A stretch of DNA of 64,000 bases from NCBI RefSeq assembly GCF_029227855.1, contig NZ_CP074356.1; one strand, given 5' to 3'. How positions within the stretch are numbered: the stretch's first letter is position 1; every line of letters begins with the position of its first letter. A program made the position numbers. The DNA is from Escherichia coli (lineage in GTDB: Bacteria > Pseudomonadota > Gammaproteobacteria > Enterobacterales > Enterobacteriaceae). This document shows positions 38,501-41,500 of this stretch, piece by piece.

Positions 38501-41500
38501 ACCTCGGGCCAGTGTATGGTAAACAGTGGCGCGCCTGGCCAACGCCAGATGGTCGTCATATTGACCAGATCACTACGGTACTGAACCAGCTGAAAAACGA
38601 CCCGGATTCGCGCCGCATTATTGTTTCAGCGTGGAACGTAGGCGAACTGGATAAAATGGCGCTGGCACCGTGCCATGCATTCTTCCAGTTCTATGTGGCA
38701 GACGGCAAACTCTCTTGCCAGCTTTATCAGCGCTCCTGTGACGTCTTCCTCGGCCTGCCGTTCAACATTGCCAGCTACGCGTTACTGGTGCATATGATGG
38801 CGCAGCAGTGCGATCTGGAAGTGGGTGATTTTGTCTGGACCGGTGGCGATACGCACCTGTACAGCAACCATATGGATCAAACTCATCTGCAATTAAGCCG
38901 CGAACCGCGTCCGCTGCCGAAGTTGATTATCAAACGTAAACCCGAATCCATCTTCGACTACCGTTTCGAAGACTTTGAGATTGAAGGCTACGATCCGCAT
39001 CCGGGCATTAAAGCGCCGGTGGCTATCTAATTACGAAACATCCTGCCAGAGCCGACGCCAGTGTGCGTCGGTTTTTTTTACCCTCCGTTAAATTCTTCGA
39101 GACACCTTCCCGAAATTTTGCAACGTCCTGCAACGGCGTAAATAGTCCGGAAGATGCGCCGAAGAAATAGAAACTGACCCTCGTCTTTTTTTCTCCTCGC
39201 TCCATACTGCCGGCATGAAAACACAACGTGGTTATACGCTGATTGAAACGCTGGTCGCGATGCTGATTCTGGTCATGCTAAGCGCAAGTGGACTCTATGG
39301 CTGGCAATACTGGCAGCAGTCGCAACGGCTTTGGCAAACCGCCAGCCAGGCGCGGGACTATTTGCTCTATTTACGTGAAGATGCCAACTGGCATAACCGC
39401 GACCACAGTATCAGTCTTATCAGGGAGGGGACGTTATGGTGCCTTGTGAGTTCCGCTGCTGGGGCCAATACCTGTCATGGCAGTTCACCATTGGTCTTTG
39501 TGCCACGCTGGCCCGAAGTCGAAATGAGCGATCTGACACCTTCGCTTGCTTTCTTTGGCCTGCGCAATACCGCATGGGCCGGGCATATTCGCTTCAAAAA
39601 CTCAACGGGCGAGTGGTGGCTGGTGGTTTCGCCGTGGGGAAGACTCCGGCTTTGTCAGCAAGGAGAAACAGAAGGATGCCTATAAAAGAGCAAGGTTTTT
39701 CTCTGCTGGAAGTGTTGATTGCTATGGCGATCAGTAGCGTATTGTTGCTGGGGGCTGCACGCTTTCTGCCTGCGTTACAGCGTGACAGTTTAACGAGCAC
39801 CCGTAAGCTGGCGCTGGAAGATGAAATCTGGCTGCGGGTATTTACCGTTGCGAAGCATCTCCAGAGGGCGGGTTATTGTCATGGCAGCTGTACCGGCGAA
39901 GGGCTGGAAATTGTCGGACAGGGTGACTGTGTCATTGTGCAGTGGGATGCGAACAGTAACGGTATCTGGGATCGCGAACCGGTAAAAGAGTCCGACCAGA
40001 TTGGATTTCGTCTGAAGGAGCATGTGCTGGAAACGCTACGCGGTGCGACATCCTGTGAAGGTAAGGGCTGGGATAAAGTCACTAATCCGGATGCCATCAT
40101 TATCGACACTTTTCAGGTTACCCGACAGGATGTCAGCGGTTTCTCGCCGGTGTTGACGGTTAATATGCACGCTGCCAGCAAGGCTGATCCGCAAACCGTG
40201 GTGGATGCCAGCTATAGCGTGACAGGATTCAACCTGTGAACCGCGAAAAGGGTGTTTCGTCACTGGCTCTGGTCCTGATGCTGCTGATTTTGGGTAGCTT
40301 GCTATTACAAGGAATGAGCCAACAGGATCGCAGTTTTGCCTCTCGCGTGAGCATGGAAAGTCAGTCATTGCGCCGCCAGGCCATCGTTCAGTCGGCGCTG
40401 GAGTGGGGAAAAATGCACTCCTGGCAGACGCAGCCCGCAGTTCAGTGCTTACTGTATGCTGCCACCGGTGCCCGGGTTTGTCTGCGTTTATTGGCAGATA
40501 ATGAGGCCGTATTGATTGCCGGTTATGAAGGCGTTTCGTTGTGGCGAACAGGCGAAGTCATCGATGGAAACATTGTTTTTTCGCCACGCGGCTGGAGCGA
40601 TTTTTGTCCGCTGAAAGAGAGGGCGTTATGTCAGCTTCCCTGAAGAATCAACAAGGCTTTAGCCTGCCGGAGGTAATGTTGGCGATGGTGTTGATGGTGA
40701 TGATTGTCACTGCGTTATCGGGTTTCCAGCGAACATTAATGAACAGTCTTGCCAGCAGAAACCAGTACCAACAGCTCTGGCGGCATGGCTGGCAGCAAAC
40801 GCAACTGCGCGCGATTTCGCCACCTGCCAACTGGCAGGTCAACCGAATGCAGACATCGCAGGCGGGATGTGTCAGCATCAGCGTTACGCTAGTTTCACCC
40901 GGGGGCAGAGAAGGCGAGATGACCCGCCTGCATTGCCCGAATCGTCAGTAGTCAGGAGCCGCTATGTTAAGGGTCTACCATTCCAATCGTCTGGACGTGC
41001 TGGAAGAGTTGATGGAGTTCATCGTCGAACGCGAACGGCTGGACGATCCTTTCGAACCAGAAATGATTCTGGTGCAAAGTACCGGTATGGCGCAGTGGCT
41101 GCAAATGACCCTGTCGCAAAAGTTTGGTATTGCGGCAAACATTGATTTTCCGCTGCCTGCGAGCTTTATCTGGGATATGTTCGTCCGGGTGTTACCGGAG
41201 ATCCCCAAAGAGAGCGCCTTTAACAAACAGAGCATGAGCTGGAAACTGATGACTCTGTTGCCGCAATTGCTGGATCGCGAAGACTTTACCCTGTTGCGGC
41301 ATTATCTGACTGACGATAGCGACAAGCGAAAACTGTTCCAGCTTTCCTCAAAAGCGGCGGACCTGTTTGACCAGTATCTGGTCTATCGCCCGGACTGGCT
41401 GGCACAGTGGGAAGCCGGGAATCTGGTAGAAGGACTTGGAGAGGCGCAGGCCTGGCAAGCGCCGTTGTGGAAGGCGCTGGTGGAATATACCCATGAACTC

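Follow-up and report, generated by a model that had tools for sequence, protein, structure and literature searches.

Results

The operon and its junctions

The window, a 64,000-nt stretch of the E. coli chromosome, carries four small genes, ppdA, ppdB, ygdB and ppdC, which overlap one another and run in the same orientation into recC (Table 1). RefSeq agrees on coordinates and names, both for K-12 MG1655 (b2826-b2822) and for a strain whose sequence matches the window at 100% identity. The overlaps are 10 nt (ppdA/ppdB), 4 nt (ppdB/ygdB, where the sequence GTGA places the GTG start of ygdB on the ppdB stop) and 16 nt (ygdB/ppdC), and the 12 nt left between ppdC and recC, TCAGGAGCCGCT, contain the recC Shine-Dalgarno sequence. 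Ahead of ppdA no Shine-Dalgarno sequence could be read. Terminator-like matches between positions 38900 and 41400 were at chance level (3 versus 2.6 expected), with none between ppdC and recC, and a generic promoter scan of the same interval returned nothing above its threshold. The four overlapping genes described in the initial annotation are thus borne out, as is the arrangement that it read as translational coupling and a run into recC, which the overlaps and the lack of a terminator suggest.

Table 1. Positions in the window of the ppd genes, recC and the elements discussed in the text.
Feature	Position	Strand	Description
thyA intrinsic terminator	39048-39079	+	11-bp hairpin followed by T8; -16.6 kcal/mol, z = -4.7
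CRP-S site (Sxy-dependent CRP site)	39093-39114	+	Core TTCGA-GACACC-TTCCC; from motif and footprint
TGCAA pentamer pair	39118-39134	+	TTGCAAC-N4-TGCAAC; pentamers 10 bp apart
CAyACT hexamer	39203-39208	+	Conserved in alignment; 6 nt ahead of ppdA ATG
ppdA	39215-39685	+	ATG start, TAA stop, 156 aa; GspH/FimU/FimT-type minor pilin, ComN orthologue
ppdB	39676-40239	+	ATG start, TGA stop, 187 aa; GspJ/PilW-type minor pilin
ygdB	40236-40643	+	GTG start, TGA stop, 135 aa; DUF2509, GspK/PilX-type cap subunit
ppdC	40628-40951	+	ATG start, TAG stop, 107 aa; GspI/PilV-type minor pilin
Nucleotide-invariant element in ppdC	40850-40890	+	Proposed recC promoter: -35, 17-bp spacer, extended -10
recC Shine-Dalgarno AGGAG	40954-40958	+	Read from sequence, inside the ppdC-recC gap
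recC	40964-44332	+	ATG start, 1122 aa; RecBCD gamma subunit; from ORF and annotation

Protein families and folds

Three of the products have prepilin N-termini and the fourth is a DUF2509 protein, as first reported. Pfam N_methyl matches PpdA, PpdB and PpdC (E = 3e-7 to 1e-6), each of which carries a class III signal peptide, with a short basic leader up to a Gly and a hydrophobic N-terminal helix behind it, and has Glu5 (RG/YTLIE, QG/FSLLE and QG/FSLPE, respectively). YgdB, the DUF2509 member in Pfam, reads KG/VSSLA, with Gly at the same position and no Glu5, as a K-type subunit should. These features, including the absence of Glu5 from YgdB, are kept in about 80 species. The operon thus comprises four minor pilin genes of which exactly one is Glu5-less, the composition of a core minor pilin set. 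The predicted folds of PpdA and YgdB are pilin folds, in which a long N-terminal alpha-helix lies against an antiparallel beta-sheet; that of PpdA matches FimU/GspH, with FimU the best structural match, and that of YgdB matches minor (pseudo)pilins. PpdB is further matched by NCBIfam PRK10557 and, weakly and at its N-terminus, by GspJ, and PF27121 (PpdB) is found on its relatives; PpdC is matched by PF12528 (T2SSppdC) as well as N_methyl, and by NCBIfam PRK10332. A PDB sequence search returned no match for PpdA and one marginal match for PpdB. Equating PpdB with GspJ and PpdC with GspI is a tentative assignment, drawn from weak N-terminal HMM matches and from Table 1 of PMC7248040, in which PpdA corresponds to GspH/FimU, PpdC to GspI/PilV, PpdB to GspJ/PilW and YgdB to GspK/PilX.

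Conservation of order, junctions and sequence

Among loci from 80 Enterobacteriaceae species, the order lgt-thyA-ppdA-ppdB-ygdB-ppdC-recC is kept as far as the DNA of each locus extends: 79 have recC behind ppdC, and the 80th locus ends before recC. Junction geometry is nearly as constant. ppdA and ppdB overlap by 10 or 7 nt in 75/80 loci, ppdB and ygdB by 4 nt in 77/80, and ygdB and ppdC by 16 or 19 nt in 78/80, while the ppdC-recC gap measures 12, 7 or 15 nt in 75/79 and the CAGGAG ahead of recC is kept in nearly all. Both synteny and junctions extend to Pectobacterium and Yersinia. Protein identity of the ppd genes drops to 35-70% across species (ThyA, 90-97%), with dN/dS of 0.06-0.17. Judged from these comparisons, the operon layout exceeds chance, order and junctions being held despite the low protein identity. 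A YgdB profile search found few relatives, and among the matches listed every source organism identified belonged to Enterobacterales.

The region upstream of ppdA

An intrinsic terminator behind thyA, kept across 72 intergenic sequences, shields the ppd operon from transcription coming out of thyA. Downstream of it, and upstream of ppdA as first gene of the operon, lies a CRP-S site (TTCGA-N6-TTCCC at 39096-39111), which matches 8/10 positions of the E. coli consensus T4G5C6G7A8-N6-T15T16C17C18A19 quoted in PMC6728893. Matching with canonical palindromic CRP or CRP-S patterns gave no clear site; this one was found through the asymmetric E. coli consensus together with footprinting. Across 72 species its half-sites are conserved and its spacer is free, with T(T/G)CGA-N6-TTCCA as consensus and TGCGA-N6-TTCCA in Klebsiella and Buttiauxella, and it is the sole match to TKCGA-N6-TTCC in the window. 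The spacing between the centre of the site and the best -35/-10 candidate is atypical. PMC12616744, drawing on Sinha 2009 and on Jaskolska and Gerdes 2015, states for ppdA that transcription is induced by Sxy and depends on CRP, and for the ppd operon that Sxy regulates it in E. coli.

Beside this site stands a pair of TGCAA pentamers, kept in 63-72 of the 72 sequences, with the G and both A of the second invariant; no other such pair occurs in the window. TTGCAA, a 17-bp spacer and AATAGT together give the top sigma-70 score of the intergenic region, and TGCAA has been described as the CytR half-site (PMC8753867; bioRxiv 2023.12.05.570089). The pair may combine a -35 TTGCAA with the site of a regulator, or may be a CytR-type operator neighbouring CRP-S. 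CRP-S promoters are said to have no common motif beyond the CRP site (PMC1635313, PMC6728893), and a conserved second cis-element beside it is possibly new. More speculatively, the CAyACT hexamer could be the -10 of a leaderless ppdA transcript. In the stretch ahead of ppdA, RNAalifold detected no conserved base pairing.

An invariant element inside ppdC

The most constrained nucleotides of the operon lie in ppdC, where CAGACA (40850-55) is followed by 12 nt, TGTGT-CAGCAT (40868-78) and a semi-conserved TAnnnT (40885-90). The string CAGACA-N12-TGTGTCAGCAT (40850-40878) is present in 80/80 Enterobacteriaceae loci and stands 85 nt ahead of the recC ATG in 62/79. Third-codon-position identity reaches about 0.9 in a 7-codon window, and 0.99-1.0 in the six best codons, compared with gene means of 0.47-0.56; no other stretch of the four genes attains it. 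Among 132 codons with a conserved amino acid, all 5 whose wobble position is invariant fall inside this element. It is absent in Pectobacterium and Yersinia, where ppdC and recC are separated by real spacers. The sigma-70 PWM score is modest, within the top 1.9% only. An overlapping ORF as cause of the invariance was rejected, as alternative-frame and antisense ORFs are not conserved, and readings of the conserved blocks as sigma-54, sigma-32, sigma-28 or LexA-box sites were rejected by eye, on spacing or key bases. The region has no Rfam match, and shuffled sequences fold as well as the 5' region of recC.

Discussion

Function of the ppd operon

The products of ppdA-ppdB-ygdB-ppdC are very probably the core set of four minor pilins of a type IVa pilus, under Sxy/CRP-S control. 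They would form a tip complex, and their transcripts should run on into recC, which appears to have a weak promoter of its own. The PpdD pilus is the chromosomal type IVa pilus of E. coli, also called haemorrhagic coli pilus or competence pilus, and the four genes served as its minor pilins, with the Hof machinery, in a reconstituted system (bioRxiv 856302). As summarized in PMC7248040, citing Luna Rico et al. 2019, their deletion in EHEC leads to pilus assembly defects. They are also regarded as orthologous to Haemophilus comNOPQ, with ComN corresponding to PpdA (PMC1635313, PMC12616744), and comNOPQ are needed for DNA uptake (PMC12616744). The role of the operon as an Sxy-controlled type IV pilus minor-pilin set is thus already published, and the finding is an ordinary one, since both this function and the recC neighbourhood are in the literature. 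The genes are well known, with an annotation in every E. coli genome. Our initial annotation had called the module cryptic and poorly understood, which no longer holds for its function and does hold for the reason of its linkage to recC. "Pseudopilin", its other label, denotes subunits of type II secretion and does not suit genes that belong to a type IVa pilus. Even with Sxy induced, natural transformation through this machinery went undetected in E. coli (PMC3330819), so that use of DNA as nutrient, adhesion and transformation are all candidate physiological roles of the pilus.

A working mechanism can be proposed from the CRP-S site found here, from induction reported in the literature and from coupling suggested by the gene overlaps. 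The operon is normally silent and would be switched on when Sxy/TfoX helps cAMP-CRP to use the weak CRP-S site. A single mRNA, translated in coupled fashion through the three overlaps, would yield roughly matched amounts of the four subunits. The motifs suggest that PpdA, PpdB and PpdC are cleaved after the leader Gly by PppA or GspO, prepilin peptidases encoded outside the window. As the analogous GspI-J-K crystal complex and the EHEC reconstitution suggest, PpdC, PpdB and YgdB may then form a staggered inner-membrane tip complex, with Glu5-less YgdB as cap and PpdA as linker, which would prime PpdD polymerisation by HofB/HofC/HofMNOPQ. PpdA, with its predicted FimU/FimT fold and ComN orthology, appears to be the best candidate for contacting DNA at the pilus tip. 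Because nothing terminates transcription before recC, induced ppd transcripts should enter it. A weak recC promoter in the last third of ppdC could, finally, account for a basal supply of RecC and tie both units physically.

What holds the pilin operon to recC

The adjacency of ppd and recC was noted in 2006 (PMC1635313) and again in 2025 (PMC12616744). One reading of it, plausible and somewhat short of probable, is that a promoter or regulatory element of recC embedded in ppdC, and not a shared function, locks the pilin operon to its neighbour, ppdA having in addition a CytR-type operator. The classical literature gives recC its own promoter, and this must sit inside ppdC or ygdB because the intergenic DNA amounts to 12 nt. 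The invariant element appears to resemble such a promoter, a weak and possibly new one. If so, recC would be transcribed in two ways, constitutively from a weak promoter and, in the competence response, by read-through that Sxy drives, and the element would explain both basal RecC supply and a long-lived adjacency that several papers have remarked on and left unexplained. The operator, if real, would link pilus expression to nucleoside availability.

The same nucleotides could instead be a signal of another kind, such as the binding site of a regulator, a point of RNA processing or a target for an sRNA, which we consider rather unlikely. Besides the modest sigma-70 score, this possibility is favoured by the start of the invariant block upstream of the extended -10 (GGA at 40865-67), by the imperfect inverted repeat formed by CAGACA and TGTCAG, and by the second -10-like TAnnnT that follows, with TGTTACTAT in some genera. 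However, the invariant positions line up with a -35 hexamer, a 17-bp spacing and an extended -10 of the form TRTGn, the presumed 5' UTR shows no notable fold, the region lacks an Rfam match, and the confinement of recC's own promoter to ppdC or ygdB again argues for a promoter.

That the tie to recC is functional seems unlikely to us. Here, competence induction would also raise RecC, and with it RecBCD, to process or degrade incoming DNA, and co-expression would have been selected. The shared orientation, the lack of a terminator and the placement of the recC ribosome-binding site within the 12-nt gap are consistent with this, as is an adjacency found across Enterobacteriaceae, Pectobacterium and Yersinia and reportedly in Pasteurellaceae, and PMC12616744 favours a functional link. 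Against it, RecC needs both RecB and RecD in order to act, and their genes belong to a different transcription unit, beyond ptrA; the invariant promoter-like element in ppdC could explain the linkage on purely structural grounds; and one relative keeps thyA-ppd with recC not downstream.

Type II secretion, decay and comparison with known systems

It is highly improbable that the ppd proteins are pseudopilins serving type II secretion (Gsp) instead of a type IV pilus. Their folds and weak HMM matches to GspH, GspJ and GspK, together with the Pfam name T2SSppdC, point that way, and minor subunits of T4aP and T2SS are reportedly interchangeable in function (PMC7248040). However, the genes lie outside any gsp operon, their neighbours being lgt, thyA, recC and ptrA, with no gsp gene within 20 kb on either side. 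Type II secretion operons have their own gspH-K. The best structural match is a pilus protein, FimU; the genes are co-regulated by Sxy with ppdD and the hof genes, are orthologous to the competence genes comNOPQ, and are used with the Hof machinery for what are true PpdD pili (bioRxiv 856302). In a comparison with GspH-GspI-GspJ-GspK (ETEC GspIJK, PDB 3CI0), YgdB, at 135 aa against about 300 for GspK, is without the latter's large alpha-domain insertion.

That the module is a decaying, functionless remnant carried along between thyA and recC is scarcely credible: silence in laboratory culture, the failure to detect transformation under Sxy induction (PMC3330819), protein evolution much faster than that of the neighbours and the missing Shine-Dalgarno sequence of ppdA would fit, but the purifying selection seen in the dN/dS values, which are not near 1, largely refutes decay, and against it stand also the compared reading frames, prepilin motifs and exact overlap geometry kept in about 80 species, the conserved CRP-S site, the presence of the stretch as nucleotide sequence of at least 95% identity in 5425 of 5426 complete E. 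coli genomes, and the EHEC deletion phenotype relayed in PMC7248040.

Minor pilin operons of Pseudomonas aeruginosa (fimU-pilV-pilW-pilX) and Neisseria (pilH-I-J-K) follow the order H-I-J-K, whereas the ppd order is H-J-K-I. In contrast to those sets, the ppd operon has no pilY1 adhesin and no pilE, encodes unusually small proteins (as in YgdB and PpdC), stands between thyA and recC apart from other pilus genes, and is under Sxy/CRP-S control. Haemophilus influenzae comNOPQ (HI0938-HI0941) are likewise four genes of similar size upstream of recC in the same orientation and CRP-S/Sxy regulated, and are treated as orthologous (PMC1635313, PMC12616744), with sequence similarity below the reach of BLAST. 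Haemophilus depends on these genes to transform efficiently in nature, with ComN as the proposed uptake-sequence receptor, whereas E. coli hardly transforms and takes up DNA with no specificity. DNA-binding minor pilins are known from Legionella (FimT) and Neisseria (ComP), and PpdA is a candidate for the same activity.

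Gene organization and protein identities

The window is E. coli chromosome, with the annotated order ptsP-lgt-thyA-ppdA-ppdB-ygdB-ppdC-recC-ptrA-recB-recD, and K-12 MG1655 has identical gene names and geometry (b2826-b2822). Of 5426 complete E. coli genomes, 5425 contain the 2.4-kb stretch at an identity of at least 95%. Downstream of the thyA end at 39030, successive overlaps are 10 nt (ppdA/ppdB), 4 nt (ppdB/ygdB) and 16 nt (ygdB/ppdC), and 12 nt separate ppdC from the recC ATG at 40964. The initial annotation, which described four small genes overlapping by 4-16 nt and ending 12 nt before recC, thus matches the ORF table and the raw sequence exactly.

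Coordinates of the features in the window
Feature	Position	Strand	Details
OmrA and OmrB sRNAs	26294-26375, 26491-26578		
STnc490 match	26589-26712		
IS200C transposase gene	about 26722-27180		mapped from the annotation of a 100% identical E. coli strain
Intrinsic terminator, strong	39048-39079		3' of thyA; -16.6 kcal/mol, z = -4.7
TTGCAAC-N4-TGCAAC, conserved	39118-39134		four base pairs downstream of the 22-bp candidate CRP-S site
ppdA	39215-39685	+	156 aa; ORF table and raw sequence
ppdB	39676-40239	+	187 aa; ORF table and raw sequence
ygdB	40236-40643	+	135 aa, GTG start; ORF table and raw sequence
ppdC	40628-40951	+	107 aa; ORF table and raw sequence
ppdC element (putative promoter)	40850-40890		CAGACA as -35, 17-bp spacing, TRTGn extended -10 (TGTGT-CAGCAT)
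recC Shine-Dalgarno AGGAG	40954-40958		within the ppdC-recC gap
Three tandem tRNA genes	55713-56005	-	tRNA-Met in the identical strain's annotation
GcvB sRNA	60330-60535		

The proteins are also as first described, with type IV pilin-like N-termini or DUF2509. The prepilin motif G-(F/Y)(S/T)L(I/L/P)E occurs in PpdA, PpdB and PpdC, all three of which match Pfam N_methyl, and YgdB is DUF2509. YgdB has the leader glycine at the same position without Glu5 (KG-VSSLA), an absence conserved across species. Lack of Glu5 is a hallmark of the GspK/PilX-type cap subunit. In its AlphaFold model (pLDDT 90.7), a helix at residues 3-60 is followed by a five-stranded sheet, and the predicted structure is that of a classic pilin; Foldseek returned no match to this model. 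Weak NCBIfam matches pair PpdA with GspH, PpdB with GspJ and YgdB with GspK. Searching 1.84 billion representatives with a profile gave only 207 relatives of YgdB, those with names being Enterobacterales (Erwinia/Pantoea, Pectobacterium and Yersinia).

A known minor-pilin operon

The ppdA-ppdB-ygdB-ppdC operon itself is already known. A review gives the equivalences FimU=ppdA=GspH, PilV=ppdC=GspI, PilW=ppdB=GspJ and PilX=ygdB=GspK, and in a passage citing Luna Rico et al. (2019) attributes strong pilus-assembly defects to deletions in EHEC (PMC7248040). The four genes also serve as minor pilins, with hofBC, hofMNOPQ and gspO, in a synthetic system for the PpdD pilus (bioRxiv 856302). Cameron and Redfield (2006) noted that four 'prepilin peptidase dependent' genes adjoin recC in Pasteurellaceae and Enterobacteriaceae, and treated the Haemophilus competence genes now called comNOPQ as orthologues of the E. 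coli four (PMC1635313). The adjacency was restated in 2025 in a paper that puts forward ComN/PpdA as the receptor for the DNA uptake sequence in Pasteurellaceae and that, in a passage on E. coli, describes the operon as Sxy-regulated with strongest induction of ppdA (PMC12616744). When Sxy is induced, E. coli produces processed PpdD pilin, yet shows no detectable transformation (PMC3330819). This literature contradicts the earlier claim that the module is functionally cryptic: the minor-pilin role, the EHEC deletion defects (PMC7248040) and Sxy regulation (PMC12616744) speak against it. The label "pseudopilin" is likewise a misnomer for published minor pilins of the PpdD pilus. What stands of the earlier interpretation is the anatomy; its claim that the function is unknown is out of date.

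Conservation and selection

Taking one genome per species gave 80 Enterobacteriaceae loci. The order lgt-thyA-ppdA-ppdB-ygdB-ppdC-recC is kept in all of them as far as the compared DNA reaches, with recC 3' of ppdC in 79 and the remaining locus stopping short of recC. Across these loci Ppd protein identity falls to 35-70%, compared with 89-100% for ThyA and 73-98% for the RecC N-terminus. Despite this divergence, junction geometry is kept: the ppdA/ppdB overlap is 10 or 7 nt in 75/80 loci, ppdB/ygdB 4 nt in 77/80 and ygdB/ppdC 16 or 19 nt in 78/80, and the ppdC-recC gap is 12, 7 or 15 nt in 75/79. In comparisons with other Escherichia lineages, the ppd genes give dN/dS of 0.06-0.17, thyA at most 0.01 and recC 0.03-0.05. 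Because of their dN/dS values we read the ppd genes as functional; they are under purifying selection, yet fast-evolving. Fast evolution is usual for surface pilins.

Compared with two loci of other Escherichia lineages (L002 and L003), dS of ppdB and ygdB is 0.39-0.89 (0.59-0.89 in three of four comparisons), in most cases two- to threefold the value for the flanking genes thyA and recC (0.24-0.36), and that of ppdC is lower (0.17-0.20). This pattern may reflect allele exchange or diversification among the pilin genes, with ppdC under constraint.

Pectobacterium and Yersinia retain the synteny, but with ppdC-recC spacers of 60 and 124 nt. The sole exception to recC linkage among the loci examined is a distant relative on a metagenomic contig (L085, SRR32776825), which retains thyA-ppdA-ppdB-ygdB-(93-aa ORF)-ppdC and has convergent unrelated genes downstream in place of recC.

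A putative recC promoter embedded in ppdC

No terminator was found between ppdC and recC, and transcripts from the ppdA promoter should therefore enter recC. A codon-level scan for synonymous constraint, run on the four genes with 76 sequences from outside Escherichia, singled out one place, in ppdC, at 40850-40855 (CAG ACA) and 40865-40879 (GGA TGT GTC AGC ATC). Six of the seven block codons have a third-position identity of 0.99-1.0, and 7-codon windows over the block average about 0.9, against gene means of 0.47-0.56. The wobble base is invariant in only 5 of 132 amino-acid-conserved codons, all five in this block. The motif (C/A)AGACA-N12-TGTGTCAGCAT is present in 80/80 Enterobacteriaceae loci, and the distance from its end to the recC ATG is 85 nt in 62 of 79 loci and 92 nt in 13; Pectobacterium and Yersinia are without CAGACA-N12-TGTGTCAGCAT.

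An overlapping ORF as the cause of the block was rejected, alternative-frame and antisense ORFs not being conserved. Rfam gave no match to the block, and the RNA downstream of it has no unusual fold. The invariant bases fall on a putative -35 hexamer (CAGACA) and, after a 17-bp spacing, a TRTGn extended -10 (TGTGT-CAGCAT), and the element reads as recC's own, putative promoter. A semi-conserved TAnnnT lies 6 nt beyond CAGCAT (TGTTACTAT in some genera). The position-weight score is weak (top 1.9% of window positions), which would be in line with RecBCD being very scarce. Such an embedded promoter, if true, would be a structural reason for the ppd-recC linkage in Enterobacteriaceae. Finch et al. 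may already have mapped a recC-proximal promoter in 1986.

The cluster has a second tight junction, where ptrA (44508-47396) and the annotated recB start share 8 nt (47389-47396); it poses the same question as ppdC/recC, of signals embedded in ptrA.

The region upstream of ppdA

The asymmetric consensus for E. coli CRP-S sites is T4G5C6G7A8-N6-T15T16C17C18A19 (PMC6728893); within the thyA-ppdA spacer, positions 39096-39111 read TTCGA-GACACC-TTCCC. When 72 distinct thyA-ppdA intergenic sequences were aligned, both half-sites were conserved and the 6-bp spacer was variable, with exact TGCGA-N6-TTCCA in many genera. We take the 22 bp at 39093-39114 to be the CRP-S site.

In the conserved TGCAA pair next to it, the pentamers, 10 bp apart, are kept in 63-72 of the 72 sequences, and G, A and A of the second are invariant in all 72. 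According to two papers, CRP-S promoters have no motif in common other than the CRP site (PMC1635313, PMC6728893). Since TGCAA is the CytR half-site (PMC8753867, bioRxiv 2023.12.05.570089), the pair may be a CytR-type operator beside CRP-S; alternatively, it may combine a -35 hexamer with a regulator site. The best sigma-70 candidate in the spacer is TTGCAA/17 bp/AATAGT, and TTGCAA as -35 would put the CRP-S centre near -49.5, an unusual position, and leave the second TGCAA unexplained. By eye, a short direct repeat at 39147-39166 seems to co-vary between genera (CGTAG...CGTAG, CGTAA...CGTAA, CGAGAA...CGAGAA; CGGAAGA...CGAAGAA in E. coli).

The raw sequence at 39180-39217 has no Shine-Dalgarno sequence for ppdA, and no conserved RNA structure was found upstream of the gene. 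A conserved CAyACT hexamer lies exactly 6 nt upstream of the ATG, with a conserved CTCG about 17 bp further upstream, and the hexamer's spacing would fit a possible leaderless ppdA mRNA starting at A39215. The lack of a ribosome-binding site, with its possible leaderless start, is a side observation of modest interest, as are the ppdC element and the TGCAA pair.

Elsewhere in the window, an IS200 insertion appears to lie just downstream of omrB and upstream of aas. The three tRNA genes and GcvB are nothing unusual in this part of the E. coli chromosome.
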